Assembly (NCBI GenBank): GCA_934096715.1
Contig: CAKOMQ010000003.1
Coordinates: 5,721-69,720, forward strand
Direction of reading: 5' to 3'
Source of the DNA: an uncultured Bacilli bacterium
GTDB taxonomy: Bacteria; Bacillota_I; Bacilli_A; RF39; UBA660
DNA length: 64,000 bases
The notes beneath the pieces were generated by a model. The model did no database searches. It saw nothing but the letters and a program-made list of their open reading frames with translations, and had not been told where the DNA came from. A program made the position numbers and the translations under genes. Positions 17,148-58,984 of the stretch are shown here, in pieces. Position 1 is the first letter of the stretch. Each line of letters opens with the position of its first letter.

Positions 17148-17173
17148 AAATGTAAATATCTATTTACTTTTGT

Positions 17174-17202
17174 TTGACATTGCAAGGTTTTTGTGGTATC
17201 AT
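17174..17202 (+). promoter_or_regulatory. Sigma-A promoter (extended -10)
   Basis: TTGACA (17174-17179), 17 nt, TATCAT (17197-17202), preceded by TGG. Confidence 0.6.
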
Positions 17203-17235
17203 ATAGCTCGTATAAATCAGTTAAGGGGGATTAAT

Positions 17236-18507: not shown

Positions 18508-18521
18508 TTAGGGGGTAAAAT

Positions 18522-20225
18522 ATGTATACTGAGAAAGAAAGAAAAGAAATTAACTGGGGATTAGTTATTAAAAGAAGCATAGTTGCGTTAGGTATAATTC
18601 TATTAATACTAGTTCTAATATGGTTAATTGGTAAAGTTAATAGTCAAAGTAATAATAAGGCTGAAGATAACACTAAAACAGTGGATAAAACAGAAAGTAA
18701 ATCATTAGAAACATATTCTAAAGAATTTATTGAAAATATAAGATACATGCAAGAAACTGGAAGAAATTATTGGAATATTGCTGGCGAATTACCTACTGAT
18801 GGAAACTCAATAAGATTATCTTTACAAGACTTAATTGATAAAGGTTTATTACTTCCATTTAGTGATAAAAATGGTAAAGCTTGCGACCAAGAAGTATCTT
18901 ATGTAAAACTTACTAATAATGGTGGTAAGTATGTTATGAGCGTTAAGTTATCTTGCGATAGCGAAACTGCTACTGTTACTGAAACACTTGGATGTAATCA
19001 ATTCTGTGATGGTAAGTGTGTTAAGTTAGAAACTAAGAAGACAGCAACTAAAACAAAAGTAACTCAATATGAATATAAACAAGCTTATAATTCATGTGAT
19101 TCAAATACTAGTTGCCCTAGTGGATATACATTATCAAATGGTAAATGTTATAAAACTAAGGAAGTAGCGGCTATTAAAACATTAGTTAACTTAGATAAAA
19201 CTACTACTGCTACAAAAGAAGAAAACAAATCATGTTCTAGTGGTTATTTATCTGGAGATTACTGCTACACTAGTTATACTGATACTGCTTATGCAAGTTG
19301 TGATGCTGGATATACAAGAAGTGGTAATAGATGTGTTAAAACTGGAACATCTACTGTTAATGCAATAGCAAATACTAGAACTACTTGTCCTAGCGGATAT
19401 GAAGTAAGCGGTAATAGATGTGTTAAAAGAGTTAAAAAGACTACTGATTTAGTTCAAAAATACACTTATACTTGTGGTAGTGGTTATAAATCTAGTGGTA
19501 GTGGTGCTAGTATGACATGTTATAAGTATACTACTAAAGAAGGTAAAAAATATTTAGAAACATATCAAAACTTAGGACCTAGTTGTGTATACCAAGGAAG
19601 AAAAGCTAAAGAAAATTGTACAACAAATTGTAATAAAAAATATTATACTTATTATTGTACTAAATCTGTAAAAGTTACAGCTGATCCTATCAAGAAATTA
19701 TCAAATTCTACATGTCCTGATGGATATACTAAGAGTGGTAATACTTGTTATAAATATGTAAACTCATATACTGATGGTACAAATCATACTACTTACTCAT
19801 GTAGTGATTCATCTTACACATTAAATGGTTCTAAATGTACTAAGAATACTAAAATAACAAAAGATTTATCTTGTCCTAGTGGATACTCATTATCTGGTGG
19901 TACATGCTATCACTACTCTGATAACAGACATAGAGCTACTGTTACAGTAAGTTATACTTGTCCTAGTGGATATAAGAAAGATAGTAAAGATCAAACTAAA
20001 TGTATCTTAAATGGTGGTAATAACTACTATAAATATACATGTGGTAAAGGCCAATTCAGAACTGGTAGTGGCGAAAATACTAAATGTTATATTAAAAATG
20101 GCGATGTAGTTAACGCTAGTAAGAATACAGGAAGTTGTACTACTAAATATAAATATACATGGTCAAGTAATAAATCTATGGCAGGATGGACTGCTACAGG
20201 TAAGACAAGAACAGTAAATAAATAG
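18522..20225 (+). CDS. Membrane-anchored protein with ~10 tandem Cys-bracketed C-x-S-G-Y-x(2-6)-G-x(2)-C repeats
   Basis: N-terminal TM IVALGIILLILVLIWLIG. Repeats include CPSGYTLSNGKCYK, CDAGYTRSGNRCVK, CPSGYEVSGNRCVK, CPDGYTKSGNTCYK and CPSGYSLSGGTCYH. Confidence 0.6.
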   Translation: MYTEKERKEINWGLVIKRSIVALGIILLILVLIWLIGKVNSQSNNKAEDNTKTVDKTESKSLETYSKEFIENIRYMQETGRNYWNIAGELPTDGNSIRLSLQDLIDKGLLLPFSDKNGKACDQEVSYVKLTNNGGKYVMSVKLSCDSETATVTETLGCNQFCDGKCVKLETKKTATKTKVTQYEYKQAYNSCDSNTSCPSGYTLSNGKCYKTKEVAAIKTLVNLDKTTTATKEENKSCSSGYLSGDYCYTSYTDTAYASCDAGYTRSGNRCVKTGTSTVNAIANTRTTCPSGYEVSGNRCVKRVKKTTDLVQKYTYTCGSGYKSSGSGASMTCYKYTTKEGKKYLETYQNLGPSCVYQGRKAKENCTTNCNKKYYTYYCTKSVKVTADPIKKLSNSTCPDGYTKSGNTCYKYVNSYTDGTNHTTYSCSDSSYTLNGSKCTKNTKITKDLSCPSGYSLSGGTCYHYSDNRHRATVTVSYTCPSGYKKDSKDQTKCILNGGNNYYKYTCGKGQFRTGSGENTKCYIKNGDVVNASKNTGSCTTKYKYTWSSNKSMAGWTATGKTRTVNK

Positions 20226-27757: not shown

Positions 27758-27790
27758 AGCATGAATACTTACCGCATTCATGCTTTATTA
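27757..27790. terminator. Bidirectional terminator
   Basis: AAGCATGAAT-acttaccgc-ATTCATGCTT hairpin between convergent genes. Confidence 0.6.
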
Positions 27791-29109
27791 TTTGTTTTAA
27801 TTGAATTAATTATTTGAGTTCTATAATTTTCACAATCATTACTATTTTTAGTTCCATCTTCATATTTTAATAAATATACTTTATTATTTTTTACAACACC
27901 GTAATAGTAAACAGTACTAAATGAATCTTTAGTTTTAAACCAATACCAATCTAAATTATTTATAGTATTTTTTGTTACATCAATATCAATATCATTTTTA
28001 TAATACTTTGCCATTTGTTTAATTAAAGATTCACTAGTACTATATCCTTTTATAGATTCAAAAGTAAATTCACACTTATTAAAGTCACTTTCTTCTTCTT
28101 TAAAAGAATAAGAATAATTAAAGGTTTCTGAATTATTTGTAAATACACCTGGAACACTCATAATAAATTCATCTTTCATAATAAGAGTGGTGTTTGTTAT
28201 AGTAGCACCATCGTATTCACCTGTAGCGTTAAAGTCTATATTATTAATTCCATCTTGTAATTTTTTATTAAATGATTCCATTATTGAGTCCATATTTGAT
28301 GATAAAAAACTCATTCCAGCGTACATTAAAGCAAAAGCAAGTAAAAAAGTAATAATTATTTCTAAGAGTAAACCTAAGAATATATTACCTACACTTACTC
28401 CACCACTTTTCATACAAATCAATTTTATATCTTTTGGCTGCCTATGAACATTAGCATTCTTTATTTTATTTACTCTTTTTTTAGCATAATTAACATAAAA
28501 TTTATTGAAAAATAATCCAACTAATATATTAAAAACAATTGATATTGGAATCACCTTAAATATTCCTTGAATTATTAGCACTAATAAAAAGTATAATATT
28601 GCATATCCAGTTAACTTACGATAGAACATGTAAGCACCAGTAAAGAAAAATGCTGAGATATTAAATTGTCTAGTAGTTAATTTTTCATAGTTATTACCTA
28701 TAAAAGCTTTAAGTAGTTCTTCATCCAATTCTTTATCATGATCATCACTTAAATTACTAGTGTATGTTGGTGTAGTTATTGGAGCATTCACTGGTTCATA
28801 AGAAATATTAGAATTAAAATTATTTATTTGTTCTCGATCTATTTCTTCACTACTTGTCAAAGTAGATTCTTGTACATTTCTATTTGCTAGTTCTTCGTTT
28901 TGTTTATTTAGAGTTTGATTATTAACTGCTGGTGTATCCAGTACTTCTAAAGTTTCTATTTCTTCTTGAGTTTCAGTTACTACACCATTATTTACTGGAG
29001 TTTCTGTAGGTTGATTTAAGTTTTGCATAGATAAAGCAGTTTCTAAATCAATATTTACAACTGAATTTGAATCTATATTTGTATTTTGATTATTATTTTC
29101 ATTATTCAT
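27778..29109 (-). CDS. Membrane protein with N/Q/T-rich N-terminus, multi-TM core and C-terminal soluble domain
   Basis: 443-aa ORF. The TM region (FNISAFFFTGAYMFYRKLTGYAILYFLLVLII) is DUF2628-like. Confidence 0.45.
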   Translation of the reverse strand: MNNENNNQNTNIDSNSVVNIDLETALSMQNLNQPTETPVNNGVVTETQEEIETLEVLDTPAVNNQTLNKQNEELANRNVQESTLTSSEEIDREQINNFNSNISYEPVNAPITTPTYTSNLSDDHDKELDEELLKAFIGNNYEKLTTRQFNISAFFFTGAYMFYRKLTGYAILYFLLVLIIQGIFKVIPISIVFNILVGLFFNKFYVNYAKKRVNKIKNANVHRQPKDIKLICMKSGGVSVGNIFLGLLLEIIITFLLAFALMYAGMSFLSSNMDSIMESFNKKLQDGINNIDFNATGEYDGATITNTTLIMKDEFIMSVPGVFTNNSETFNYSYSFKEEESDFNKCEFTFESIKGYSTSESLIKQMAKYYKNDIDIDVTKNTINNLDWYWFKTKDSFSTVYYYGVVKNNKVYLLKYEDGTKNSNDCENYRTQIINSIKTNNKA

Positions 29110-36389: not shown

Positions 36390-37157
36390 TTAATCTGATA
36401 TATTTTCTAATATGGCAATAATTTCGTTTATAGATTTTAAAGCATCATCAAAACTTACATGTTTTGTGTATTCCAACTTTTCTTGGTAATCAATATAAAC
36501 TTTTCTTAAAGTATCACTGCTATCTATTATTTCTATTATTTCTTTAAATTCAGGTATATCAAAAACAGTATTTCTTTTTAAAAAAGTATTTTTAATAGCG
36601 TTATATAAATTAGTTTCGTTTATATTATCTCTAAAATTATACGTTATCATATAGATGTCATAAAAATCTTTTGCACGCGTATTAACAATATTTCTACTTA
36701 TGATACTATTAAACTTTTCTGCTAAAATAGTTTCTAAATTATAAGCAAGAATATTTATTTTTTTATCTTCAAATATTGAATTATATTTATATTTAATTTC
36801 TTTAGGAGTAATTATATCTCCTGTTGTAATCTCAATAAAGAAATTAGTTCTTATTTTATCAAATACACCTTTTACATTAATACGAAATCCCCCATATTCA
36901 TCATCAGATCTAATATCTTTAATACTTTCGATTTCAAATGTTACATTGTCATTAATATCTATATTTAAAATATTATTAAACATGTTTCTAATAGTTTCTT
37001 CATTTAAAGGTAAACTTTTTAAAGTAGCATCCAAATCTTTGGTTGTTCTTAAATCTTCACCAATTATTGATGATAATAAAACTCCGCCCTTTAGAATTAT
37101 ATTGTTTCTATAATCACTTTTTTCTAAACGCATCAATACATGTTCAAAGAAAAACAT
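36390..37157 (-). CDS. abiEii: AbiEii/AbiGii-family nucleotidyltransferase toxin (type IV TA)
   Basis: Motifs ILKGGVLLSSIIGEDLRTTKDLDATL. Family-like sequence continues 26 sense codons upstream of the ATG, up to the abiEi stop. Confidence 0.7.
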   Translation of the reverse strand: MFFFEHVLMRLEKSDYRNNIILKGGVLLSSIIGEDLRTTKDLDATLKSLPLNEETIRNMFNNILNIDINDNVTFEIESIKDIRSDDEYGGFRINVKGVFDKIRTNFFIEITTGDIITPKEIKYKYNSIFEDKKINILAYNLETILAEKFNSIISRNIVNTRAKDFYDIYMITYNFRDNINETNLYNAIKNTFLKRNTVFDIPEFKEIIEIIDSSDTLRKVYIDYQEKLEYTKHVSFDDALKSINEIIAILENISD

Positions 37158-37235
37158 TTGATGAAAATGATGTGAAAGATTACTATTACCATTTGTTTTT
37201 TTCTTAATTACACTATTTAATTTATCAGAATTAAA

Positions 37236-37838
37236 TTATAATAACACCTCCATTAATTCTACGACTTCATTCTCAATCCCCATTATTTTTGCATATTTAA
37301 TCAATTTTAAAATATTCTTGTTTTTGTTTTCAGCATATCCTTTTAATGCTTTGGAATAAATCTCTTTATCCATACGATTTTTATCTTTTATAATATCACA
37401 AATTGTTCTTTCTAAATCATAACATTTAACTTCTAATTCATTAATAGTTTTAATAATATCTAATCCTAATTCAAAAATATCATTTTTAACATATCTTAAA
37501 GATACATTCTTATTATCTAGTAAACTCCCGCTATAATTATATGGTACAGTAATATCATATACAAGTGGAATTCTATCAGTAAGATTGTGTAGATATAGCG
37601 CTGTAGCGTGCGAATAACACATTGATTTACTACATTTTGATAAAATATAAAAATTATCTACAGGATATTCAGGCAATTTATAAACTCCATACCCAACCTT
37701 TTCTAACTTGTTTTCGTTTATTAAATTACTTAAAAAAAATCTTTTAAATCCTAATTCATCTATTTCTTTTGTTGTAATATACCCATTTTTTTCTCTGACA
37801 CAATTTAAAATCTTATCATAATTATTCATATCCATCAT
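37236..37838 (-). CDS. abiEi: AbiEi-family antitoxin/transcriptional regulator
   Basis: N-terminal wHTH-like ILNCVREKNGYITTKEIDELG...LEKVGYGVYKL, located upstream of abiEii. Confidence 0.7.
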   Translation of the reverse strand: MMDMNNYDKILNCVREKNGYITTKEIDELGFKRFFLSNLINENKLEKVGYGVYKLPEYPVDNFYILSKCSKSMCYSHATALYLHNLTDRIPLVYDITVPYNYSGSLLDNKNVSLRYVKNDIFELGLDIIKTINELEVKCYDLERTICDIIKDKNRMDKEIYSKALKGYAENKNKNILKLIKYAKIMGIENEVVELMEVLL

Positions 37839-38017: not shown

Positions 38018-38212
38018 TTATCTAGAATAACTACTAAAATTATCTAAATCAATTCCATAAGCAAGTGCAACTTCAATAACATCATCATCACTACCATTGC
38101 TTGCTCTTTCTAAATCAAACATAACCCCAGGATTTATAACAATCATGAGAGTACCTAAATAGTCAATTAAATATCTTCTTAAACTTTCAATATCAATATA
38201 ATCTGAATACAT
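38018..38212 (-). CDS. Small acidic hypothetical protein (ends ...DNFSSYSR)
   Basis: 64-aa ORF whose start overlaps the stop of the CHAP gene. A strong terminator (AGATAAG-8 nt-CTTATCT, then T7) follows downstream. Confidence 0.45.
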   Translation of the reverse strand: MYSDYIDIESLRRYLIDYLGTLMIVINPGVMFDLERASNGSDDDVIEVALAYGIDLDNFSSYSR

Positions 38213-39186
38213 TATTTATTTTTTCTCCTTCTTTTTATTATCAAAAAACCTACAACCCCAATAATTATAGCAATAATAGACACAGTTAAGATAATTAGTT
38301 TTTTATTACTTTTATTTTCTTTAATATCTTTTTTAACTACTACTTTACTTTCTTTTTTCTCTTCTTCTTTTCTAGTTACATGAATAGTATAAACTCTTTC
38401 TGTTTTATTCTCAGAAGTTACAGTTAATTTAATATCATTAACTCCTACATTTAGTGTATAATCTCCTGTACCCTTAATAGTAGCTTTGCTATTTTCTAAA
38501 GTAGCACCTACATTTATTTTATCGATTTTATAATCAACTTCTAAAGTATATTCTAAAGTTTCTTTTTTAAAATCAATGTTACCAGTACTTAATGTAATAC
38601 TTTTTATATAATTATTATCTGACTTAGTAGTCACTTTCTTTGTTGTAGAAGTAGTTTTATTATTAGTTGTAGTATTAGTATTACCTGCCGGTGTTTTAGG
38701 GGCATCATCTAAATAAATATAACCAATCACATTTTCTGCAGGATCATATTCACAAGCAGATTTTTTCATATTATTTTTACATTCTCTTAAAGTACTTTCA
38801 TCTACAGAATTGTCATAACAATAATTTTCATCTTCTTTTGAAATACATTCTTGATCAGAGTCCCATACATATATTTTTCCATCTCTTACACTTTCTACAT
38901 AACCAACATGTCCATAACTAGTAATATTCCAAACTACTACTGAATTAGCTCTGGGAGCTGTACCAACACTATAACCTGCATTTCTAGCAGATTCATACCA
39001 AGTTCTAGCATTTCCCCAAGTTGGCAATGCAACTCCTGCTCTTTCATAGGCTTTAGCCCAAGTATACCAAGTACAGTTTGTTCCATAAGGACCAGCTTGT
39101 TTATATGGGTTAGAAGCCGCTAAAGTATTACTAACTCCTATATACATAAACAATATTATTAAAATAAATCTTTTTATAATTTTCAT
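38212..39186 (-). CDS. CHAP-domain amidase/peptidase with cadherin-like beta-sandwich domain and C-terminal TM anchor
   Basis: Likely start MKIIKRFILIILF (signal). CHAP Cys/His: GTNCTWYTWAKAY...SYGHVGYVESV. Also a cadherin-like module (IKSITLSTGNIDF...YTIHVTRK), a K-rich linker and a TM. Confidence 0.65.
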   Translation of the reverse strand: MKIIKRFILIILFMYIGVSNTLAASNPYKQAGPYGTNCTWYTWAKAYERAGVALPTWGNARTWYESARNAGYSVGTAPRANSVVVWNITSYGHVGYVESVRDGKIYVWDSDQECISKEDENYCYDNSVDESTLRECKNNMKKSACEYDPAENVIGYIYLDDAPKTPAGNTNTTTNNKTTSTTKKVTTKSDNNYIKSITLSTGNIDFKKETLEYTLEVDYKIDKINVGATLENSKATIKGTGDYTLNVGVNDIKLTVTSENKTERVYTIHVTRKEEEKKESKVVVKKDIKENKSNKKLIILTVSIIAIIIGVVGFLIIKRRRKNK

Positions 39187-39246
39187 AATCTCATCCTTCT
39201 CCATATCTATTATAATCGAGTGTTTCTTAATAAGCAATACTTCCAA

Positions 39247-39660
39247 GTTCTTTAATCTTTTTATACATTATAATTTCATTCCATGCTTACTCTATTAAAC
39301 TTTTAAACATAAGATTTTTAGCTACATCACTAAATTCTAATTTATAAAGCATTTCACTTTTAAATCTTTCCTTACTACCTTGGCTTATGATTTTCTTATA
39401 AGTTTTCCATTCTCTATTTTTTAAATACATAAGGAATTATTTTTAACTATAAATGGTTCTAACTAATTTAATATAAGCATCCATATATTCATAATGCCTA
39501 GAATTTAATGAATCTTCTAACATTAATGATGTAATAATAATACTTTCTATATTACTTTTACCAAATTCAACTACTAAAATATTACTTGCTTCACATAAAA
39601 CTTCGTTATCATTTCTAATAGAGTCCCATAACTCATAAACTATCTCCCAAATACTAGGTA
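39247..39660 (-). pseudogene. Possible decayed gene remnant
   Basis: One minus-strand frame reads ...PSIWEIVYELWDSIRNDNEVLCEASNILVVEFGK...LVRTIYS*K*FLMYLKNREWKTYKK...FKSLIE*. It has no canonical start and two in-frame TAA codons. Confidence 0.3.
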
Positions 39661-40542
39661 TTATTTCTTTTTCTTTATAAGTCTATAGCTGCCATATCCT
39701 AAACCACCTACAATACCTATGGTAATAACATTATCAATAATAGCGGAACCATTAGTTTCATCAGCTTTATTTACTATAAGAGTATAAGTTTTTTTAGTGC
39801 CATCTTCTGCTGTTACTTCAAAAATGACAGAGTTTTTACCATCTTTTAAATTTTTATCACCAGTAACAAATAGATTAGCATTAACATCCTCTAGTTCATA
39901 TTTATAGTTAAGATTAATCATGCTTGTAGGCAAATTTATTTCAGCAGTATCATTTTCAAATGTAATTTCTTTATTATCAACGTATATTTTAACATTTGTA
40001 TTTTTACTTAAATCTTTTCTTGTAACATTTAATACATAATTTTTTGAATTACCATTTTCAGCTGTAACAATAATATTTACAGTATTATCTCCAATAACTA
40101 AAGTACTTTTATCTATCTTATAAGTTGCTTTAGAATCATTTAATTCAACTTTTATATCAACAGTACTTTTTGAAGTTTGATATGTCATAATATCATTAAC
40201 ATCTATTTGATTATTATCAACAATAATAGATTTAATAGAATTATCACTACTTTTAGCTACTGTTTTTTTAATAGTTGGAGTGTTATTAGTAATTTGATTA
40301 TTTGATTCAACTTTAGAAGAACTATTAATCATACTCCCATCTGCATTAAAAACTTGTCCTAAAGAATTAGTATAGGTATTACCACTATGACAATGATATT
40401 CATCTTGATTCAATCCCCATCTAGCACAATTAGTTCTGCAATAATGACAACCATTGCTGTCAGTTCTTCCAGGATGAGCAAACGTGTTATAAGGACATAA
40501 AATCACACATAAAATTGTTATAACAAATAAATCTTTCTTCAT
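39661..40542 (-). CDS. YHYH-domain protein with two cadherin-like beta-sandwich domains and C-terminal TM anchor
   Basis: Signal peptide; HPGRTDSNGCHYCRTNCARWGLNQDEYHCH (YHYH-type metal-binding motif). Two modules end in YVLNVTRK and YTLIVNK. TM segment ITIGIVGGLGYGSY. Confidence 0.65.
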   Translation of the reverse strand: MKKDLFVITILCVILCPYNTFAHPGRTDSNGCHYCRTNCARWGLNQDEYHCHSGNTYTNSLGQVFNADGSMINSSSKVESNNQITNNTPTIKKTVAKSSDNSIKSIIVDNNQIDVNDIMTYQTSKSTVDIKVELNDSKATYKIDKSTLVIGDNTVNIIVTAENGNSKNYVLNVTRKDLSKNTNVKIYVDNKEITFENDTAEINLPTSMINLNYKYELEDVNANLFVTGDKNLKDGKNSVIFEVTAEDGTKKTYTLIVNKADETNGSAIIDNVITIGIVGGLGYGSYRLIKKKK

Positions 40543-42541: not shown

Positions 42542-43483
42542 TTATCTACTACATCTGTTTTTAGGCTGTCTAATTCGTATCAGGTCATCACCAGAAAATT
42601 CTTGAGTACCTAATTCATCAACTAAATGATTACAAACTTCCAACCCAGAAGAACATATTGAATTAAACTCTATTATATCAATTACTTCTTTATCATCCAT
42701 TAATACCTGCCCTACATCCAAAACATAACTGCTTGGAAAATTTGGTACAGACGCAATTCTCTTAATTTGGTTTTCGATAAACATCCTAACTTCGTTTGGA
42801 ATCTCAGTTGGATAATCAATATAAGATCTAGAAATGCTTAATAAAGTATTATTCAAAACAAATACTCGGTATTCTTTACAATCCATATCATTTTCCACAT
42901 CTTCAATTGGTTCAAAAACGTCAGAAAGAAAAATAGAATCCTTTGAAGATATATTCCACAATGGCGGATTTGTTACAAAATATTTTTTGTCTTCTAAATC
43001 TACATATCCAAAATATTTTAGAACACAATGATTTTGACTTTTTTCTACAGTTTTCAAAAAGATTTTTTTAAAAAATAACCTATATTTTTCAGAATTATTT
43101 TGGAAGTCTTCATAAGTTGTTTGTATAATTCTTCTGTGTACAGGTTGAATTTTTTGCGGCCAATTAGTAATTATTTTTAAATCTTCACTAGTTTGAATAC
43201 TTAGCGCACCATTTTCCTCTAACTGACTTAAAAGTTCCTTTTCAGTTGATATAAAACTTCGTGGAAATATAACTTTACCTCTAACGTTTATTTCTCTACC
43301 ATCCTTGTAAAATTTTTCAGTGGTTCTATCAAATACTATTAACATATCACTCGTTTTAGCATCATCCATCAATTCTTGTTCCTTAGTTTTTATCCAAATA
43401 GTATTCTCGTCATCATTTTCACTTACATTATAATCTGTCATTCCTAAACAAGGAACACTAAAACAAAAATAATCAATTTTCAA
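42542..43483 (-). CDS. ATP-grasp-like protein (DUF4343-type) with basic tail ...LIRIRQPKNRCSR
   Basis: 313-aa ORF with a TTG start after a GGAGTGA SD. KEYRVFVLNNTLLSISRSY and VLDVGQV...VIDIIEFNSICSSGL resemble the C-terminal half of ATP-grasp folds. Confidence 0.5.
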   Translation of the reverse strand: MKIDYFCFSVPCLGMTDYNVSENDDENTIWIKTKEQELMDDAKTSDMLIVFDRTTEKFYKDGREINVRGKVIFPRSFISTEKELLSQLEENGALSIQTSEDLKIITNWPQKIQPVHRRIIQTTYEDFQNNSEKYRLFFKKIFLKTVEKSQNHCVLKYFGYVDLEDKKYFVTNPPLWNISSKDSIFLSDVFEPIEDVENDMDCKEYRVFVLNNTLLSISRSYIDYPTEIPNEVRMFIENQIKRIASVPNFPSSYVLDVGQVLMDDKEVIDIIEFNSICSSGLEVCNHLVDELGTQEFSGDDLIRIRQPKNRCSR

Positions 43484-48200: not shown

Positions 48201-48994
48201 TTTCTATTTATAATACGGCGATATAAATCATTTAAGTCACTTGTAGCAAATCTACCACCATCAAGTTGAATCATTGGTCTTAACTCTGGTGGAATAACAG
48301 GAAGTACTGTTAATACCATCCATTCAGGTTTATTACCAGATTCATAAAATGCTACTAAAGCATCTAATCTTTTAACTAATCTAATCTTCTTTTGACCATT
48401 ACTATTTTCAAGTTCCTTACGTACATCTTCTATTTCATGCTCTAAATCTACATTTTGTAGTAACTCTCTAATAGCTTCAGCACCCATACCTACTTTAAAA
48501 GTATTTCCATATTTTTCATAGTAAGTACGATATTCTTTATCAGATAACGTTTGTTTTACTTCTAAAGGAGCACTTCCTGGATCAATAACTACATAAGATA
48601 CGAAGTATAATACTTCTTCTAAGTCTCTTGGAGACATATCTAATACTAATCCCATTTTAGAAGGAACACCTTTGAAGAACCAAATGTGACTGCATGGAGC
48701 AGCAAGTTCAATGTGACCCATTCTTTCACGTCTAACTTTTGAACTAGTTACTTCTACTCCACACCTATCACAAACTACATTCTTATATCTAAGCCTTTTA
48801 TACTTTCCACAAGAACATTCAAAGTCTTTAGATGGTCCGAAAATCTTTTCACAGAATAATCCATCACGTTCAGGTTTTAATGTACGATAATTAATTGTTT
48901 CTGGTTTCTTTACTTCTCCATAAGACCAACTTCTTATTTTTTCAGGAGATGCAATACCTATTTTTAAACCTTTAAAATTACTAACATCTATCAT
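45278..48994 (-). CDS. rpoC: DNA-directed RNA polymerase subunit beta'
   Basis: 1238 aa with a zinc finger [23 protein letters not shown] and catalytic NADFDGD. The C-terminal tail is acidic. Confidence 0.97.
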
Positions 48995-51900
48995 TAAATC
49001 ACCTCATCACTTTCAATGTCTCCAGGAAATTCTAAATCATCTAAGTCAGTTTCTTCTTCCATAAATTCTTCTTCTTCTTTTAATTCTTCAAATGGAGTTT
49101 CATTTTCATCTATAGAAGATTCTTTATCTTGATTTACATCATTTATTTCTTCAATTCTAAAAGGAACATCATTATCTTCTTCTTCTAAATCTTTAAATTC
49201 TAGTACTTCATCATCATTATTAACTACTTGAACATCTAATCCTAAAGCTTGGAATTCTTTAACAAGTACTCTAAATGATTCTGGAACACCCGCTTGATTT
49301 ACTTCTTTTCCTTTAACAAGTGCTTCATATACTTTTACACGACCTACTATATCATCTGCCTTAACAGTAAGTATTTCTTGTAGTATGTGAGCAGCACCAT
49401 ATGCATATAATGCCCAAACTTCCATTTCACCAAATCTTTGACCACCAAATTGAGCTTTACCACCAAGTGGTTGTTGAGTTACAAGTGAATAAGGTCCAGT
49501 TGCACGCGCATGTAATTTATCATCAACCATGTGATGTAATTTAACCATATACATTACACCAACACTTATCTTATGATCAAATGGCTCACCAGTACGACCA
49601 TTGTATACAGTAGTTTTTCCATCTTCACTCATTCCTGCTTCTTTCATTTGCTCTTGAATTTCTTCCCAAGAAGCACTATCGAATACAGGAGTAGCAAAAT
49701 GAACACCTAATTTTTTACCAGCCATACCTAAGTGTAATTCTAGTATTTGTCCAATATTCATACGAGATGGAACACCAAGTGGGTTAAGCATTACATCTAC
49801 TGGTCTACCATCTGGTAAGTATGGCATATCTTCTTCTGGTAAAATAAGAGAAATAACACCTTTATTACCATGACGACCAGACATTTTGTCACCAACTTGA
49901 ATCTTACGTTTTTGAATAATGTAAACACGAATTATCTTAGACACACCACTAGGAAGTTCATCACTGTTTTCCTTAGTATATACTTTAACATCATGAACTA
50001 CTCCACCTGCTCCATGTTCAACACGTAAGGATGTATCTCTTACTTCACGAGTCTTTTCACCAAAGATTGCATGTAATAATTTTTCTTCACTAGTTAATTC
50101 TTGAACCCCTTTAGGAGTAACTTTACCTACTAAGATATCTCCTTCTTTTACTTCTGTACCAATTTTAATAATACCATCAGCATCTAAGTTCTTACGAGCA
50201 TCTTCACCAACGTTAGGTATATCTCTTGTAATTTCTTCTGGTCCAAGTTTAGTATCACGACAATCAATATCGTAGTGATCAATATGTAAAGATGTATAAA
50301 CATCATCTTTTACTAATCTTTCATTTAAGATAACAGCATCTTCATAGTTATATCCATTGTATGTCATAAATGCTACTGTCATATTTTTACCTAATGCAAG
50401 TTCACCTTTTTCAGTTGAAGGTCCATCTGCAAGTACTTGTCCTGTATGAACTTTATCTCCAACATTAACAAGTGGTTTATGATTTAAACTTGAAGATGCA
50501 TTAGTTCTTTCAAAGTTTGCTAAGTAATAAGTATCTTTATTATTAGCAGTTTTAACTATTATTTTTAATCCATCAGCATATTCTACTACACCATCAGCTT
50601 TACATACTACAGTACTTCCTGAATCACGAGCCGCAATCCATTCAACACCTGTACCAACAATTGGAGCTTCAGTTGTAAGAAGTGGAACTGCTTGACGTTG
50701 CATGTTTGATCCCATTAGAGTACGGTTGGCATCATCGAACTCTAAGAATGGAATACAACTTGTTGTAATAGATACAACTTGACTAGGTGCAACATCGATA
50801 TAATCAACCAATTCTTTCTTAATAAATACGTTATCACCATTATGACGTACTAAGATTTCATCATCTAAGATATTTCCTTTATCATCTTGATTAACCTTAG
50901 CTTGAGATATATATAAATCTCTTTCTTCATCAGCAGTCATATATACTATTTCACTAGTAATTACACCATCTTTAACTTTACGATATGGAGTCATTATAAA
51001 TCCATATTCATTAATCTTAGCATAACCAGCAAGTGATGTAATAAGACCGATATTTTGTCCTTCTGGTGATTCAATTGGACAAATACGACCATAGTGAGAT
51101 GAGTTAACGTCACGTACATCCATTCCAGCACGATCACGAGAAAGTCCACCAGGTCCTAAACTAGATAAACGTCTTTTATCTGTAAGTTCTGCGATAGGGT
51201 TAATTTGATCCATGAATTTAGAAAGTTGTGAAGAACCAAAGAACTCTTTTAGACTAGCTGTTACTGGACGAATATTGATTAATGTTTTTGGAGTAACATT
51301 TTCTAATTCTTGAGTAGTCATTCTTTCACGAATAACTCTTTCCATCCTTGCCATACCAGTTCTAAATTGGTTTTGAATTAATTCACCAACTTGTCTAACA
51401 CGACGGTTACCTAAATGATCTATTTCATCTGTTTCACCAATATTTTGATGTAGATTTAAATAATATGACACTGCTCCATATATGTCTGGAATAGTAAGTC
51501 TTTTTTCATCAACACTTGTATCAACACCAATAATTTTAACAGTTTTCTTTTTGTCTTCTTTATCTTCTACAAGTACTGTTTGAATCATATTATAGTCATC
51601 TAATTCCATATTAGTAAGACATTCTTTTAAATTATATCCATTTTTAAATACTTCTTTTAACTTACCTAATACTTCTTTATCAATTAAAGTACCCTTTTCA
51701 ATAACAATATCTCCATCTTTAATAGTTTCTGCTAAAATACATCCAAGTAGTCTATCAGTAACATTTAATTTCTTATTAAATTTATAACGACCAACTTTAG
51801 CTAAATCATAACGGAATCTGTCAAAGAATCTTGTTATTAATTGGTTTTTAGCACTATCTAAAGTAGCAGGTTCTCCCGGTCTTAATTTTTCATAAATTTC

Positions 51901-53554: not shown

Positions 53555-53706
53555 ATAAAAAGAAAACTCTATCAATTAAGATAGAGATTCTCACATTTTC
53601 GTTCGGGATAATTTATTGCTCGCACCACCCGAGAGCGAGAAACATTGTCGACCGGAATAATTTATTACTCGCACCATCCGGGAGCGAGAAACATTTTCTT
53701 TAATGC
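53555..53706 (-). ncRNA. Candidate ~150-nt small RNA with two tandem pseudoknot modules
   Basis: It has its own promoter (53741-53713). Two ~49-nt modules are each predicted to fold as an H-type pseudoknot (CUCGC/GCGAG plus CCGGA/UCCGG or UCGGG/CCCGA). The terminator is CTCTATC-TTAATT-GATAGAG followed by TTTTCTTTTTATTTT (53586-53551). Confidence 0.55.
53598..53697. repeat. Tandem direct repeat, 2 copies of ~49 nt (plus partial third start)
   Basis: Equivalent positions are 49 nt apart (for example CTCGC at 53619 and 53668). The copies are about 85% identical, and the differences cluster in one paired stem. Confidence 0.85.
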
Positions 53707-53712
53707 AATTTG

Positions 53713-53741
53713 AATATACAATAATTAATAGCGAATGTCAA
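53713..53741 (-). promoter_or_regulatory. Promoter of the candidate sRNA
   Basis: Minus strand: TTGACA (53741-53736), 17 nt, TATATT (53718-53713). Confidence 0.55.
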
Positions 53742-53810
53742 CATATACTCTAAAAATAAAATTATTAAATCCTTATATTAATATTATATGTAAATAATAT
53801 TCTTTATTAC

Positions 53811-54053: not shown

Positions 54054-54122
54054 AAGTATCACCTAGTAGTATTTTATGCAAGCAATTATTTTTTGACAAA
54101 GAAAAAATAGCCATTAAGACTA

Positions 54123-54911
54123 TTATCTACTTTCTCCGTTTCTAACTTCATCAATATCAGACATAAGACGCCTAGATTCTAAACCTTTATTTAATAATTC
54201 ATTATATTCCTGTAAAGTAATTATTTCCCAGTTTTTTAAATTAAGATAACTTTCTACTCCATATACTCCAGTATTTGCAGTAGGTAACCCTTCTTTTCTT
54301 CCTAATCTAGTTTTAGCATAGTAAATTTCATCATCACTAACTAATTTCTTTATAAGGATATTTTTATCAACAACATTAACTATATTTACAAAGTAATTTG
54401 TTTCACCTTTTTTTATAGTATGCCAGAATTTCACAAGATATTCATCATATTCTCCTACTAAAGTATAAGTACAATCATCACAAGTAACACATATTTTATC
54501 TTTAATACTAGGACGAATTCCCATATTAAACATTTCATGATATGCAGTACATGAATGAGTATAATTATGATATGTTTCTGGATGAGTGTCATTTAAATTA
54601 AAACTTATATCAAAAGATACAATATTATTAGAATTTAATTTTTCTATATATTCAAGACACGTTTTAACAAATGGCTCTTCACAAGCTATTTTAAAAGAAT
54701 GGATATCTGTATTCGCACCATCTATAGAAACAATTGCATCAGTATTATTATTGATTCCATAAGCATTTATACTTCTATCAAATTCTGCTACTATCTCATC
54801 AGTGACTTCTTTATTCCAAAGTTTCTTAGCTCCTTTAAAAATTAAGTTCTCAACATCCCTAATAACAGTATTAGATCGATCATATTTTAATCTTGTTTCT
54901 AAATTTTTCAT
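54123..54911 (-). CDS. Paralogue 1 of a four-member family of unknown function (ends ...VRNGESR)
   Basis: Likely start MKNLETRLKYD (GGAG SD). Shares LKYD, a TYD-like strand and the NYTHSCTAYH motif with paralogue 2. Confidence 0.55.
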   Translation of the reverse strand: MKNLETRLKYDRSNTVIRDVENLIFKGAKKLWNKEVTDEIVAEFDRSINAYGINNNTDAIVSIDGANTDIHSFKIACEEPFVKTCLEYIEKLNSNNIVSFDISFNLNDTHPETYHNYTHSCTAYHEMFNMGIRPSIKDKICVTCDDCTYTLVGEYDEYLVKFWHTIKKGETNYFVNIVNVVDKNILIKKLVSDDEIYYAKTRLGRKEGLPTANTGVYGVESYLNLKNWEIITLQEYNELLNKGLESRRLMSDIDEVRNGESR

Positions 54912-54949
54912 ATATATCTCCAAATATAGAAAAATAGTCATTATGACTA

Positions 54950-55729
54950 TTATCTACTTTCTCCTACTCTTCCTTCTTCACTTGATAGCATTACTGCTCT
55001 TGAAGCCATTATTTCAGCAATCTTTTCACTATATTCTAATTCATCTATTTTAATAAAATCTAATGAATCAATAAGTTTTTGAGCATATAATGCACCATCG
55101 TTAGCAGAAATAGAACTTACATTTTCAGGTAAAATACTTTTACTATATGATACTTTACCTTCATTAGAAATTTTTCTATAAACATTATTCTTACTATCAA
55201 CTGTTACAAGATCATCAAAAATTCCATGTTCATGAGTTAATTCAGAATGTTCAAGTTCTATTAAACTATCATTATATTTAGCAACTAATCTTTCATAAGT
55301 ATCATCAACTCTGTTATTAATAGTTTCAACTATTCTTGGAGTAACATATTCATAGAAAGAATAAGCACCAGTACATGAATGTGTATATTCACGTTCCATA
55401 TCACCATTATTAACTGTTAAATCATTTATAACTGAGTATTCAACTATTCCATTATCATGATTATTTTCATCATAAGTAAGACTAGCATTCATTTTGTCAT
55501 TCTTGTGAGTTAATTCTATTTTATGAGAACCAATTCCATACTCATACGCTTTTACAGTTGTTATACTAGTAGAACCAAAACTATTCTTAGTTTTAACAAA
55601 TTCTTCTCTTATTTGACGTGTTATACGGTCATTAGATATTTTCTTACTATACTTACCAATAACACTTTCTATTGCATCAGCAACTATATTTTTCTTATCA
55701 TATTTTAATTTTATATCAATATTTTCCAT
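54950..55729 (-). CDS. Paralogue 2 (ends ...GRVGESR)
   Basis: Likely start MENIDIKLKYD (GGGGGA SD). Contains ASLTYDEN and REYTHSCTGAY motifs. Confidence 0.55.
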   Translation of the reverse strand: MENIDIKLKYDKKNIVADAIESVIGKYSKKISNDRITRQIREEFVKTKNSFGSTSITTVKAYEYGIGSHKIELTHKNDKMNASLTYDENNHDNGIVEYSVINDLTVNNGDMEREYTHSCTGAYSFYEYVTPRIVETINNRVDDTYERLVAKYNDSLIELEHSELTHEHGIFDDLVTVDSKNNVYRKISNEGKVSYSKSILPENVSSISANDGALYAQKLIDSLDFIKIDELEYSEKIAEIMASRAVMLSSEEGRVGESR

Positions 55730-55762
55730 CTTTTTTTCCCCCTTCAATTAAAATACATCAAT

Positions 55763-55791
55763 ATAATAGCACATTTTTATCTATCTGTCAA
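55763..55791 (-). promoter_or_regulatory. Consensus extended -10 promoter for paralogue 2
   Basis: Minus strand: TTGACA (55791-55786), 17 nt, TATTAT (55768-55763), with TGC upstream. Confidence 0.65.
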
Positions 55792-55833
55792 GTTTTTGTA
55801 AATAGTAAACAAAAAGTAGACAACATTTACTTA

Positions 55834-56622
55834 TTATCTACTTGTTCTTCCTGTATCAATTCCTAAATTATTTAAAACATCATTATATTCGTTTTCATAG
55901 TCTCTAAAAGAAATTGGTGTATAATTTAAGCTAATTGCAAAATCATTTAAATATTCAATTCCTTTAAGTGAACTAGGCATTTCATCTTGAGTAGCATCAA
56001 CTTCTGCTTTCATGTATGAATCAAATAAATTATCATCTCTTACAATTGTCGTTCTTTTTAAGAATTCATCATCTTCTTCGTTATAAGTATATGCTTCTTC
56101 ACTTGAAGCATCACCTTCACTTTTAATAACAGTAAAACTTCTTAAACTATCATCATAAACAGCTTCCATAGAAGTACAATAAGATACACCATCATGAATA
56201 CCTTCTGTTACTAAAGATTCTATAGTTTTAGGAATTTTTGCATCATGGTACCCATAATTATGAACATAACGATTAGTTGTATAATCTTGAAACTTTTCAC
56301 CTATAATTTTTTTACAAAATTCAAGTATACATTCTACATTCTTGTCTTCTCCACGTTTTTCATCATAAGTAATAGTAATTGTTGTATCTAAATAATTAAT
56401 AGTTAAAGACATTCTTCTAGAATTTCCTTCATATGTATATGAATCATACGAATACTTAATATCCTTCTCAACTAGTATTTTTTCTTCTTCATCTTGGAAT
56501 CTATCAAGAATATGTTTCCTTATAACACATTCTGGCGTTCCACCTAATTTTCTTTTTATTTCTTTTTCAATTTCATTGAAATAAGTATGATTTTGATTTA
56601 ATTCTTGAGCATTCTTTTCCAT
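55834..56622 (-). CDS. Paralogue 3 (ends ...DTGRTSR)
   Basis: Likely start MEKNAQEL (GGGGGA SD). Contains ITITYDEK, NRYVHNYGYH and GDASSEEAYTY motifs shared with paralogue 4. Confidence 0.55.
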   Translation of the reverse strand: MEKNAQELNQNHTYFNEIEKEIKRKLGGTPECVIRKHILDRFQDEEEKILVEKDIKYSYDSYTYEGNSRRMSLTINYLDTTITITYDEKRGEDKNVECILEFCKKIIGEKFQDYTTNRYVHNYGYHDAKIPKTIESLVTEGIHDGVSYCTSMEAVYDDSLRSFTVIKSEGDASSEEAYTYNEEDDEFLKRTTIVRDDNLFDSYMKAEVDATQDEMPSSLKGIEYLNDFAISLNYTPISFRDYENEYNDVLNNLGIDTGRTSR

Positions 56623-56654
56623 AAATATTTCCCCCTTGCATATAAATCTTATAA

Positions 56655-56683
56655 ATAATAACACTTTTTTATAAATATGTCAA
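56655..56683 (-). promoter_or_regulatory. Consensus extended -10 promoter for paralogue 3
   Basis: Minus strand: TTGACA (56683-56678), 17 nt, TATTAT (56660-56655), with TGT upstream. Confidence 0.65.
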
Positions 56684-56758
56684 ATTTAACATACTTAAAA
56701 TCATATTAAAGTAACTAACTAAATAATAATATCATTTTACAATTAAATGTAATATAGT

Positions 56759-57571
56759 TTATCTAGCAATTCCTTGCTCCTTTTCTTCACTAATTAAAAT
56801 TCCTCTAGACTTCATAACAGCATTTACCATTTTTTGATATTCATCATAATTGATTTCAACAAATTCAGCACCGTTAATAACTTCATTTACATAATTCCAT
56901 CCACTAAAATTAGTTGGAATTTCTTTATCCTTTTCGAAAACTCCTTTGCTATATATTTCAGTTTTATTATTATCCTTTACCACACAATGTTTTTTCACTA
57001 TTTCTTTTGTACCACGGTCGATTTGATAAAATTCTTCACTAGAATCATTGCCTTCTCTTTTGTATACTCTGTAATCATTAATAATATCATTAAAACTACT
57101 TTCTATCTCATTTTCAAATTCTACCCCATTAGCAATACCTTTGTTAATAAATATTTCACGATTACTTGGAATACCTTGTTGAAGCACATTGAAAGAATTT
57201 ACATAACGATTTATAGTTGTTGTTACATCTTCTCCTTTTTTAACAGTCTCGCTAAATTCAGCAGTAATAAATTTACCAACTTCATTATATTCTTGATCAT
57301 AAGTTAAACTGATAGAAGTGTCATTATCTCCTAAAGTTAACTTCATTTTTTCTCTTCCATTTTCATCATCATTTTTATCAAAAGATATAGTTAAATCCTT
57401 TTTAGAGAGTTTTTGTTGCTCTTCTAAAAATTTACCTAATGTATTATTTTTCATAATTCCATTACCTGCTGGTTCTAACTTTCTTTTAAGTTCAGTTTCG
57501 ATTTCATAAATATTTAGACCATCCACAACTGTTCTCCCATTAATTTTTTTAAACATTCCTAAAAATTCCAT
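56759..57571 (-). CDS. Paralogue 4 (ends ...KEQGIAR)
   Basis: AAGGAG SD 6 nt before the ATG. Contains ISLTYDQE, NRYVNSFN and GNDSSEEFYQI motifs. Confidence 0.55.
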   Translation of the reverse strand: MEFLGMFKKINGRTVVDGLNIYEIETELKRKLEPAGNGIMKNNTLGKFLEEQQKLSKKDLTISFDKNDDENGREKMKLTLGDNDTSISLTYDQEYNEVGKFITAEFSETVKKGEDVTTTINRYVNSFNVLQQGIPSNREIFINKGIANGVEFENEIESSFNDIINDYRVYKREGNDSSEEFYQIDRGTKEIVKKHCVVKDNNKTEIYSKGVFEKDKEIPTNFSGWNYVNEVINGAEFVEINYDEYQKMVNAVMKSRGILISEEKEQGIAR

Positions 57572-57614
57572 ACTTATCTCCTTTTCTACAATAAAAGTAC
57601 CATATCTTTTTAAT

Positions 57615-57655
57615 GTTTACAATTAATTTATTATTTCAGTTTACAATTAGTTTAC
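57615..57655. repeat. Direct repeats GTTTACAATTA (x2, plus partial third) upstream of paralogue 4
   Basis: Copies at 57615-57625 and 57639-57649, with a partial GTTTAC at 57650-57655. They lie within the promoter region. Confidence 0.6.
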
Positions 57656-57860: not shown

Positions 57861-58913
57861 TCACTTTATAGCAAGCTTGCTAAATATCTTCTTTATTACA
57901 AATTTATCAATTACATTATATATCAAGTTTATAATATAGGAGATAATCAAAGATAGAATAAAGATAATAGGAATTATTTTAATATAATTGATTAAACTAC
58001 AAGTTATAGAAGAATTAAAATATATTTTGTAAATATATTGATCTACTAAGTAAGAAGATAAATACATAACAAATGATAATTGAGATACTTTAACAATTAT
58101 CATTTTAAATAAATTAGGTAATTTATTTAAATCCATTTTTAGTATTGTTATAAACAGAAATGTTGAATTCATTACATTGAATATACTACCCCAATCATTA
58201 TGAATTCCCCATACAAAATTATTATCATGGGATAAATAAATATTTAATACAGATGAAATAATTAAAGAAAATAAAAATAATAAGAATGTTTTTGATATTT
58301 TAAAATCATCTTTGTATTCAGATATATAAGCACCAATATAATAATAAGTAAATGGATATAGTGTCAACCAATAATCCATGGTTACTACATGTTTTATATT
58401 CAATAATCCAGGCAAACTGGTTAACAATATGAATGTTCCAATTAATATTTTCTTTTCTTTTTTACCAGAGAGATTCTTATAGATAATATTTAAAAATGGA
58501 ATAAGCAAAAATAACCCAATGTACATTTCTACATACCAACTATAGCCAGTTTGATTAAAATCTAATAAACTATTTCTAATAAATTCTATACTTAATTCAG
58601 TATGTAATATAAAATAATTAAATAAGAAAAAAACAATTACATAAAGGAAATAAGATATCAACACTCTTGATATTGATAAATAATATGATTTACTTAATTC
58701 TTTTTTTCTCATTAGATATCCAGTAGTAATCAAAAATAGTGGTACACATGTCATGCAAAGAGTTCTAAAAGTTGTTGCTAAATATAATTGCTTGTCAGAT
58801 ATTGGAACAAAATAAAAATTAGTATTTAGAAAAAAATGAACAGACATCACCAAAAATACAGCAAGTGCTTTTATTAAATCTACACTAACATTTCTACTTA
58901 TAACTTTATTCAT
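57861..58913 (-). CDS. Acyltransferase family 3 membrane protein
   Basis: About 350 aa and 10 TM. The N-terminus SVDLIKALAVFLVMSVHFF is typical of acyltransferase_3. The ATG at 58913 follows an AAGGTGA SD. Confidence 0.7.
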   Translation of the reverse strand: MNKVISRNVSVDLIKALAVFLVMSVHFFLNTNFYFVPISDKQLYLATTFRTLCMTCVPLFLITTGYLMRKKELSKSYYLSISRVLISYFLYVIVFFLFNYFILHTELSIEFIRNSLLDFNQTGYSWYVEMYIGLFLLIPFLNIIYKNLSGKKEKKILIGTFILLTSLPGLLNIKHVVTMDYWLTLYPFTYYYIGAYISEYKDDFKISKTFLLFLFSLIISSVLNIYLSHDNNFVWGIHNDWGSIFNVMNSTFLFITILKMDLNKLPNLFKMIIVKVSQLSFVMYLSSYLVDQYIYKIYFNSSITCSLINYIKIIPIIFILSLIISYIINLIYNVIDKFVIKKIFSKLAIK

Positions 58914-58984
58914 ACACAATCACCTTAACCTTACATATATCTTATTATAAATAAAGCATTCTTGTCAACAAAAGAAAAAGAGAA

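Follow-up and report, generated by a model that had tools for sequence, protein, structure and literature searches.

What do four neighbouring genes that resemble nothing in the sequence libraries do for a gut bacterium, and why does their number differ between strains? The question is raised by a tandem array of four paralogues, here called p1 to p4, in a 64,000-nucleotide (nt) stretch of DNA from an uncultured Bacilli bacterium (GenBank assembly GCA_934096715.1, contig CAKOMQ010000003.1, positions 5,721 to 69,720), which we refer to as the window and whose own numbering is used below. A first-pass annotation had described the array as diverged copies of an unrecognised family. Following it up computationally, we are highly confident that the four open reading frames (ORFs) are intact protein-coding genes under selection, that they form one family, and that this family is confined to one narrow clade.

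Four intact genes form a single family

The four genes lie head to tail on the minus strand, as had been described, with long-ORF lengths of 272, 265, 276 and 270 amino acids (aa) for p1 to p4. The true starts of p1, p2 and p3 are internal ATGs with Shine-Dalgarno sequences, and the lengths that follow agree with independent gene calls in public assemblies:

54123..54911, minus strand: paralogue p1, 262 aa; ATG start at 54911 after GGAG
54950..55729, minus strand: paralogue p2, 259 aa; ATG start at 55729 after AAGGGGG
55834..56622, minus strand: paralogue p3, 262 aa; ATG start at 56622 after AAGGGGG
56759..57571, minus strand: paralogue p4, 270 aa; ATG start, ribosome-binding site (RBS) AAGGAG

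The longer alternatives fall in regulatory DNA: the long-ORF start of p1 (54941) is within the p2 terminator, and the long-ORF GTG of p3 (56664) is upstream of its -10 hexamer (56660-56655), before the likely transcription start. More than 70 allelic variants in public assemblies are all full-length, with no premature stop. We considered and rejected a p1 pseudogene in one strain locus (L091), whose apparent frameshift is accounted for by a run of N at a scaffold gap.

By BLASTP, p1 and p2 are 28% identical over 264 aa (E 9e-28) and p3 and p4 are 31% identical over 241 aa (E 3e-33), which bears out the two subfamily pairs (1+2 and 3+4) of the first-pass annotation. Between the pairs, BLAST aligns the C-terminal 57 aa only (p2-p4, E 9e-6), and divergence between paralogues reaches less than 20% identity. 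We treat the two pairs as one family because a pair-to-pair profile comparison joins them over 203 collinear columns reaching the C-terminus (hhalign probability 94.9%, E 4.7e-8). Most of the shared motifs that had been read from the translations are present, namely (S/T)(L/I)TYD(E/Q) as SLTYDE, TITYDE and SLTYDQ, YTHSCT in p1 and p2, NRYVH/NRYVN in p3 and p4, and an acidic SSEEA/FY block in p3 and p4. Two others stood in part. A common N-terminal helix motif had been proposed, and both of its versions exist (IKLKYD in p2, EIEKEIKRKL in p3), but they are not equivalent elements, since IKLKYD/RLKYD is modelled as a short beta-strand before helix 1. Likewise, all four proteins end in Arg, but the proposed G-x-(S/A)-R ending does not extend to p3, which ends G-R-T-S-R.

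All four proteins are acidic (isoelectric point 4.7-5.2) and hydrophilic (grand average of hydropathy -0.4 to -0.8), with polar N-termini (e.g. MKNLETRLKYDRSN) and no hydrophobic N-terminal stretch. On a reading of the sequences, with no dedicated predictor run, we found no signal peptide, lipobox, transmembrane segment or wall anchor, and a cytosolic location is solidly indicated by these properties.

The family lies outside the libraries searched and is narrowly distributed

We counted a protein as a member of a curated family where its profile hidden Markov model (HMM) score was at or above the curated cutoff (Pfam-A, NCBIfam, PHROGs). The family had no significant match in Pfam, NCBIfam, PHROGs (none at E <0.01), PADLOC or the sequences of the PDB. 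The best sub-cutoff profile matches were to DUF6669 (18.5 bits against a cutoff of 27), Rpr2 (16 against 29.3) and YcgN (16.8 against 170). In the first of these, residues 49-144 of p4 align to positions 51-153 of the Pfam profile (E 0.0015); we treat this match as chance because it is confined to p4 and its 95%-identical allele and does not recur in the other eight members scanned. The family thus lies outside every known kind that could be tested here, in keeping with the first-pass annotation, which could assign it to no known domain.

About 15 billion proteins, by way of 1.84 billion cluster representatives, were scanned with a HMMER profile, unfiltered and without a word index. Eight clusters came back; every one of them belongs to the family and lies in this array, within a single species group of uncultured gut Bacilli or in a sister lineage. 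Word-index searches (three, over 5.8 billion clusters) contributed nothing beyond near-identical variants. The window proteins fall in 90%-identity clusters of 11-22 human-gut assembly sequences, none of them functionally named. One true member from the sister lineage, a 240-aa protein that we call x240, was recognised only with the HMMER filters off, the bias filter having dropped it, so divergent, compositionally biased relatives could have been missed.

By its RpoB, the organism belongs among uncultured Bacilli metagenome-assembled genomes (MAGs) of rabbit, goat and human gut (best match 88% identical), some of which are labelled Tenericutes, CAG:460, Ca. Caccenecus or Ca. Onthocola. A six-frame HMM search, filters off, of 80 rpoB loci of the nearest GTDB species (RpoB 79-88% identical) found no family member; in these loci the methyltransferase-rpoB pair is conserved, and spoVIF and the array do not adjoin it. 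No relatives turned up in a pattern scan of GTDB species genomes, in scans of viral contigs and Joint Genome Institute (JGI) metagenomes, or by tblastn against phages and plasmids, and no dispersed copies of the array genes occur elsewhere in the window. The composition of the array genes is host-like, with GC content at third codon positions (GC3) of 0.08-0.15 against 0.12 in rpoB, in a host of roughly 26% GC.

The predicted fold is confident and unmatched

The AlphaFold2 model of p1, built on 14 sequences, reached a mean predicted local distance difference test score (pLDDT) of 85.2 and a predicted template-modelling (TM) score (pTM) of 0.82; that of p4, from an 8-sequence alignment, reached 75 and 0.70. 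The two models share one topology. A short N-terminal strand leads into a helix hairpin, after which 11 strands form an antiparallel meander; a helix-strand-helix unit comes next, and the chain closes with 8-10 disordered residues, the last of them always Arg. The meander has one hydrophobic face and, by hhalign self-comparison, no internal repeats. Hydrophobic residues alternate with polar ones along its strands, and the helices too are amphipathic, which fits a soluble sheet-on-helices or half-barrel domain, and each array protein is predicted to be a single soluble alpha/beta domain.

We took a fold match to be a significant E-value together with a TM score of about 0.5 or more. Foldseek searches of both models against the PDB and BFVD, a check that the first-pass annotation had proposed, gave a best E of 0.011 and a best TM of 0.35. 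A predicted fold that is confident and unmatched in these two libraries is, at the level of the models, a solid result. Several ideas suggested by the topology (pore-forming-toxin or Cyt-like, Tubby/LURP, LolA and GFP-like barrel) were not represented among the Foldseek matches.

The array grew by whole expression units and varies between strains

The first-pass annotation had credited every gene with strong expression signals and a following hairpin, and had noted direct repeats in the p4 promoter. The features that bear on these points are:

55763..55791, minus strand: p2 promoter, TTGACA-17-TATTAT with TG extended -10
56655..56683, minus strand: p3 promoter, TTGACA-17-TATTAT with TG extended -10
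57639-57649 and 57615-57625, minus strand: two exact direct repeats TAATTGTAAAC (reverse complement of GTTTACAATTA), 24 nt start to start
54100..54124, minus strand: AT-rich hairpin and U-run after p1, overlapping the p1 stop codon; -6.2 kcal/mol, z -2.1
54926..54951, minus strand: hairpin and U-run after p2, within the 38-nt p2-p1 spacer; -9.5 kcal/mol, z -2.4
55810..55842, minus strand: hairpin with 11-bp stem and U-run after p3, directly before the p2 promoter; -12.3 kcal/mol, z -3.1
54930..54980, with a second copy at 54103-54153, minus strand: gene-end/terminator block (GGAGAAAGTAGATAATAGTCnTAATGACTAT), repeat D1, 51 nt, 84% identity

The extended -10 promoters of p2 and p3 are as had been described (55791-55763 and 56683-56655 on the strand read). 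Among the 17 sites in the window that match the promoter consensus at 11 of 12 positions, five carry the TG, and two of these five are the p2 and p3 promoters. Owing to their near-consensus sigma-A promoters, extended -10 elements and strong Shine-Dalgarno sequences, p2 and p3 are probably made abundantly in vegetative cells. Strong signals do not extend to the other two genes: p1, which starts 38 nt past the p2 stop, lacks a promoter and would be transcribed together with p2, and p4 has only a weak promoter match (TTGAGT-18-AATAAT, 57659-57630). Hairpins follow p1, p2 and p3; p4 has none (z +1.4). Rfam had no match at E <=1 over the array and its intergenic regions.

The two exact TAATTGTAAAC copies overlap the weak p4 promoter match and may be an operator there. 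A third copy with one mismatch lies upstream of p3 (56735-56745, repeat D3). Across the window the element is not enriched (7 matches against 7.3 expected at up to one mismatch), and only the two adjacent tandem copies stand out.

Between the genes, segments holding promoter, RBS and terminator recur every 820-900 nt or so, in register (repeats D1-D6). The promoter regions of p2 and p3 (D6), and likewise the RBS/start regions, are homologous to each other in step with the gene period (D2 and D6), which indicates that whole expression units were duplicated. Copy number differs between strains, as a check proposed by the first-pass annotation was meant to reveal; four layouts were seen, with between three and five copies each:

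Window and L002: p4-p3-p2-p1; four copies
L001: p4-p3-p2-d-p1; same species, p2 100% and p4 99.6-100% identical; d is 43% identical to p1
L009 and L091: p3-p2-d'-p1, without p4; non-orthologous acyltransferase (25-27% identity), p3 about 80% identical
Sister lineage (L008 and L010): p3'-x240-p2'; neighbours 81-89% identical, a small extra ORF, then spoVIF

Across the window species, the related lineage and the sister lineage we distinguish nine sequence types at <=50% identity. In L009 and L091, p2 stays at 86-97% identity while p3 falls to about 80%.

The p2-p1 junction of the window is chimeric with respect to L001: upstream of the gene-end/terminator block it corresponds to the L001 c-end (the p2 end), and downstream to the L001 d-end/e-start. 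The crossover block (GGAGAAAGTAGATAATAGTCnTAATGACTA) covers the last codons, the stop and the terminator stem, and this arrangement indicates that the fifth paralogue, d, is gained or lost exactly at the conserved block. The array grew by tandem duplication of whole promoter-RBS-gene-terminator units, and copies are gained and lost through unequal crossing-over in the conserved block of about 50 nt. We regard expansion in tandem as whole expression units, with copy number varying through a defined crossover mechanism, as solid.

Within the species, the ratio of nonsynonymous to synonymous substitution rates (dN/dS) is 0.13-0.24 in the array genes and 0.05-0.43 in flanking genes; against L091 it is 0.16-0.40 in the array and 0.36 in the flanking methyltransferase. 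Against the sister lineage, the array proteins are 40-47% identical and flanking proteins 81-89%, and the array dN/dS of 0.6-0.9 (Nei-Gojobori method, NG86) is probably inflated because dS is near saturation or the genes are not orthologous. We read the jump in divergence as a sign that different old paralogue types were retained, not that the genes are one-to-one orthologues. We make no claim of positive selection, as the cleaner comparisons give 0.13-0.40; what these ratios and layouts argue for, and what we claim, is purifying selection on each copy and turnover of copies by birth and death.

Genomic neighbourhood

The array is flanked by glycan-synthesis genes, spoVIF, a methyltransferase gene and rpoB/rpoC. 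Directly downstream is spoVIF (Pfam SpoVIF, E 4e-20), separated from the array in the sister lineage by the small extra ORF. In the strain loci the array adjoins genes for WecB, a WecG/TagA-like protein, an O-antigen-ligase-like protein and an acyltransferase-3; in the sister lineage it adjoins an HD-domain gene, and the acyltransferase is absent. The acyltransferase-3 of the window (57861-58919) is only 25-27% identical to those of the p4-less strains (L009 7126-8169, L091 1-531), and strains that share 99% identity in RpoB share 86-88% in WecB, from which we conclude that the glycopolymer locus is strain-variable and replaced by recombination that reaches into the array.

In no layout, with up to 10 kb of flank, is the array flanked by toxin, secretion-system, Rhs/LXG, defence or mobile-element genes, and eight family members gave no match in PADLOC-DB 2.0 at E <=1. 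The nearest defence-type genes, 17 kb away, are an AbiEi-like/AbiEii type IV toxin-antitoxin pair (36390-37838, minus strand; AbiEii E 3e-34), preceded by the only 12/12 sigma-A consensus promoter of the window (37884).

Between spoVIF and methyltransferase-rpoB-rpoC (53560-53745, minus strand), a GC-rich element, AATGTTTCTCGCTC(C/T)CGG(A/G)TGGTGCGAG(T/C)AATAAATTAT(T/C)CCG, occurs twice in tandem downstream of a strong promoter (TTGACA-17-TATATT); beyond the two copies lie an intrinsic terminator (53586-53567) and another promoter (53516). Each copy forms a 5-bp hairpin whose loop could pair with a downstream TCCGG/CCCGA as a pseudoknot. The element has no Rfam match, occurs once in L091 and not in the sister lineage, and may be a small RNA or an attenuator. 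The small extra ORF of the sister lineage (L010 2196-2399, 67 aa, containing VDGAMAQEGMPLTEEIKEKL) may carry a VbhA-type antitoxin domain, to judge by its sequence.

Several other features of the region are recorded here. The methyltransferase-rpoB unit is not preceded by rplJ-rplL, which is usual there, and RpoB has an extremely acidic C-terminal extension of about 70 residues (48994-49200). In a related MAG (L020 7965-8474), the position equivalent to that of the array, upstream of methyltransferase-rpoB, is taken by a GPTGPQGEI-repeat collagen-like protein, which from its sequence we take to be of the BclA-like exosporium type, and an acidic 223-aa orphan. An R2K-clade ATP-grasp protein (42542-43483, minus strand; Pfam R2K_2/R2K_3, barely over cutoff) lies 11 kb from the array; this clade consists of predicted protein- or peptide-modifying ligases, and the C-terminal tail is conserved among the array proteins. 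Pfam (E <=0.001) recognises none of three large ORFs (455, 567 and 443 aa; 17140-20225, plus strand, and 27778-29109, minus strand). Two adjoining cadherin-like beta-sandwich proteins, one with a CHAP peptidoglycan-hydrolase domain (38212-40542, minus strand), are followed by two small ORFs without a family match.

What the array proteins may do

The account that we offer as the best explanation as a whole is a tentative one. Its functional part, that the array proteins are diversified cytosolic binding proteins kept diverse by strain-level conflict, is possible but less likely than not. On this view, the paralogues would all bind one shared partner through the conserved C-terminal module and tail, and would differ in the ligands recognised by the variable beta-sheet. 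Strain-level conflict, whether with phage or with competitors, would keep the set diverse, at the margin of a cell-wall glycopolymer locus that itself varies between strains. What points this way is the turnover of copies, the many types retained, the provision of a promoter for most copies and the location of the array, which borders a surface-glycan locus that varies between strains.

Several observations weigh against the proposal, whose functional part is circumstantial. No defence, toxin, secretion or mobile-element gene adjoins the array and PADLOC is silent on its members; the dN/dS values give no robust sign of positive selection; and promoter strength is judged by consensus matching only. 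Recombination in the neighbouring glycopolymer locus may simply carry along the differences in copies and alleles seen at the p4/p3 end. Because the terminal Ser-Arg-stop lies in the crossover block, the conserved Ser/Ala-Arg-stop ending may have been kept as DNA, as terminator stem and crossover block, rather than as a peptide motif. As to the narrow distribution, its main caveat is that compositionally biased distant relatives could have been missed.

The immunity, anti-defence or variable-effector role suggested in the first-pass annotation is neither supported nor refuted by these results. A version of it, in which a new fold and family with at least nine types in one genus-level clade provides constitutive intracellular recognition for phage defence, immunity or anti-defence, seems to us rather unlikely; variable beta-sheets would then sense different invaders, and the Arg-ended C-terminal tail would couple them to a common effector. 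Arrays of polymorphic-toxin immunity genes and orphan cassettes (contact-dependent inhibition (CDI), Rhs, LXG) are similar in consisting of head-to-tail, diverged, acidic cytosolic paralogues with strain-variable copy number and conserved ends that promote recombination (here the 3' block). The present array differs in that no toxin, secretion-system or Rhs/LXG gene is near it, and its proteins are larger than such immunity proteins, match no library model and are not on mobile DNA.

The explanation that best survives beside that of diversified binding proteins is that this lineage-specific family does an ordinary cytosolic job (storage, scaffolding or stress response, for example), with the variation a neutral by-product of repeat instability and linkage to a recombination hot spot. 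We consider it possible, and about as likely as the binding-protein account. Purifying selection throughout, host-like composition, housekeeping flanks (rpoB, rpoC, methyltransferase) and the lack of conflict-system neighbours all agree with such a role, and the conserved junction block alone accounts for gain and loss of copies; however, the retention of nine types at <=50% identity in a few close lineages is hard to explain in this way, and independent strong promoters kept per copy are hard to reconcile with a single ordinary function.

It is unlikely, in our judgement, that the array proteins serve the adjacent glycopolymer pathway as carriers or chaperones for ligands that are hydrophobic or lipid-linked; in this reading a curved amphipathic sheet and helices would enclose a lipid (e.g. 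an undecaprenyl-linked intermediate) and the paralogues would serve different glycans. The idea draws on the highest-probability Foldseek matches of both models, the ORD domains of OSBP, ORP1, ORP2, ORP8, Osh3 and Osh4 (probability 0.75-0.90), which share the order of an N-terminal segment, a helix hairpin, a long antiparallel meander and C-terminal helices. It also draws on the adjoining WecB, WecG/TagA-like, O-antigen-ligase-like and acyltransferase-3 genes and on the co-variation of array content with the type of glycopolymer locus. Yet the ORD matches, at TM 0.28-0.30 and E >0.01, are in the range of chance resemblance. An ORD is recognised by a near-complete beta-barrel of about 19 strands that encloses a lipid tunnel and by the signature EQVSHHPP; the array proteins have 11 strands, are half the size and have no sequence similarity to these eukaryotic domains, and the signature is absent from the family alignments. 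The resemblance is in the order of elements and is not evidence of membership. Moreover, the array genes have promoters of their own outside the glycan operon, and the sister lineage carries its array beside an HD-domain gene and without the acyltransferase.

Less probable again is a structural role in the spore coat or crust, if the organism forms spores at all. The proteins would then be produced in the cytoplasm of the mother cell, which would explain their lack of signal peptides, and would assemble on the forespore. The known parallel is cotVWXYZ and cgeAB, with which the array shares lineage-restricted tandem paralogues without signal peptides beside the coat-related spoVIF and surface-glycan genes. 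Coat proteins are typically confined to narrow lineages, and the BclA-type collagen-like protein at the equivalent position in L020 would accord with a coat function. The spoVIF gene that adjoins the array is itself suggestive, since that of B. subtilis is listed among the spore-coat genes and is activated by GerR (PMC12613536). In addition, Tyr and Lys residues are conserved in the family, and p1 and p3 are rich in Cys. Against this stand the vegetative sigma-A promoters of p2 and p3 (TTGACA-17-TGnTATTAT), where sigma-E or sigma-K types would be expected from cotVWXYZ and cgeAB, and the lack of any sequence or fold similarity to those proteins. No CATA-type mother-cell -10 element lies upstream of any array gene, unlike spoVIF, whose upstream region contains CATAAAATA, which we take to be such an element.

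Finally, that the ORFs are chance frames or decaying pseudogenes in AT-rich DNA, an idea whose sole support is the want of annotation and known homologues, is already effectively refuted by the array dN/dS of 0.13-0.24, the p1 model and the full-length state of all variants, with the concordance of the two confident models and the strong RBSs and promoters also against it.

Significance

Practical value is limited pending a function or an expression record, and orphan paralogue arrays as such are common. If the family is as it appears, it is a clean natural case of a fold without detectable relatives that has expanded, diverged and kept turning over within one narrow lineage, and it would bear on how protein families are born. 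To our knowledge, there is almost no experimental biology for uncultured, genome-reduced gut Bacilli. With nine sequence types and natural strains carrying three, four or five copies, the array offers a tractable test set that bears on the role of strongly expressed orphan genes in these bacteria.

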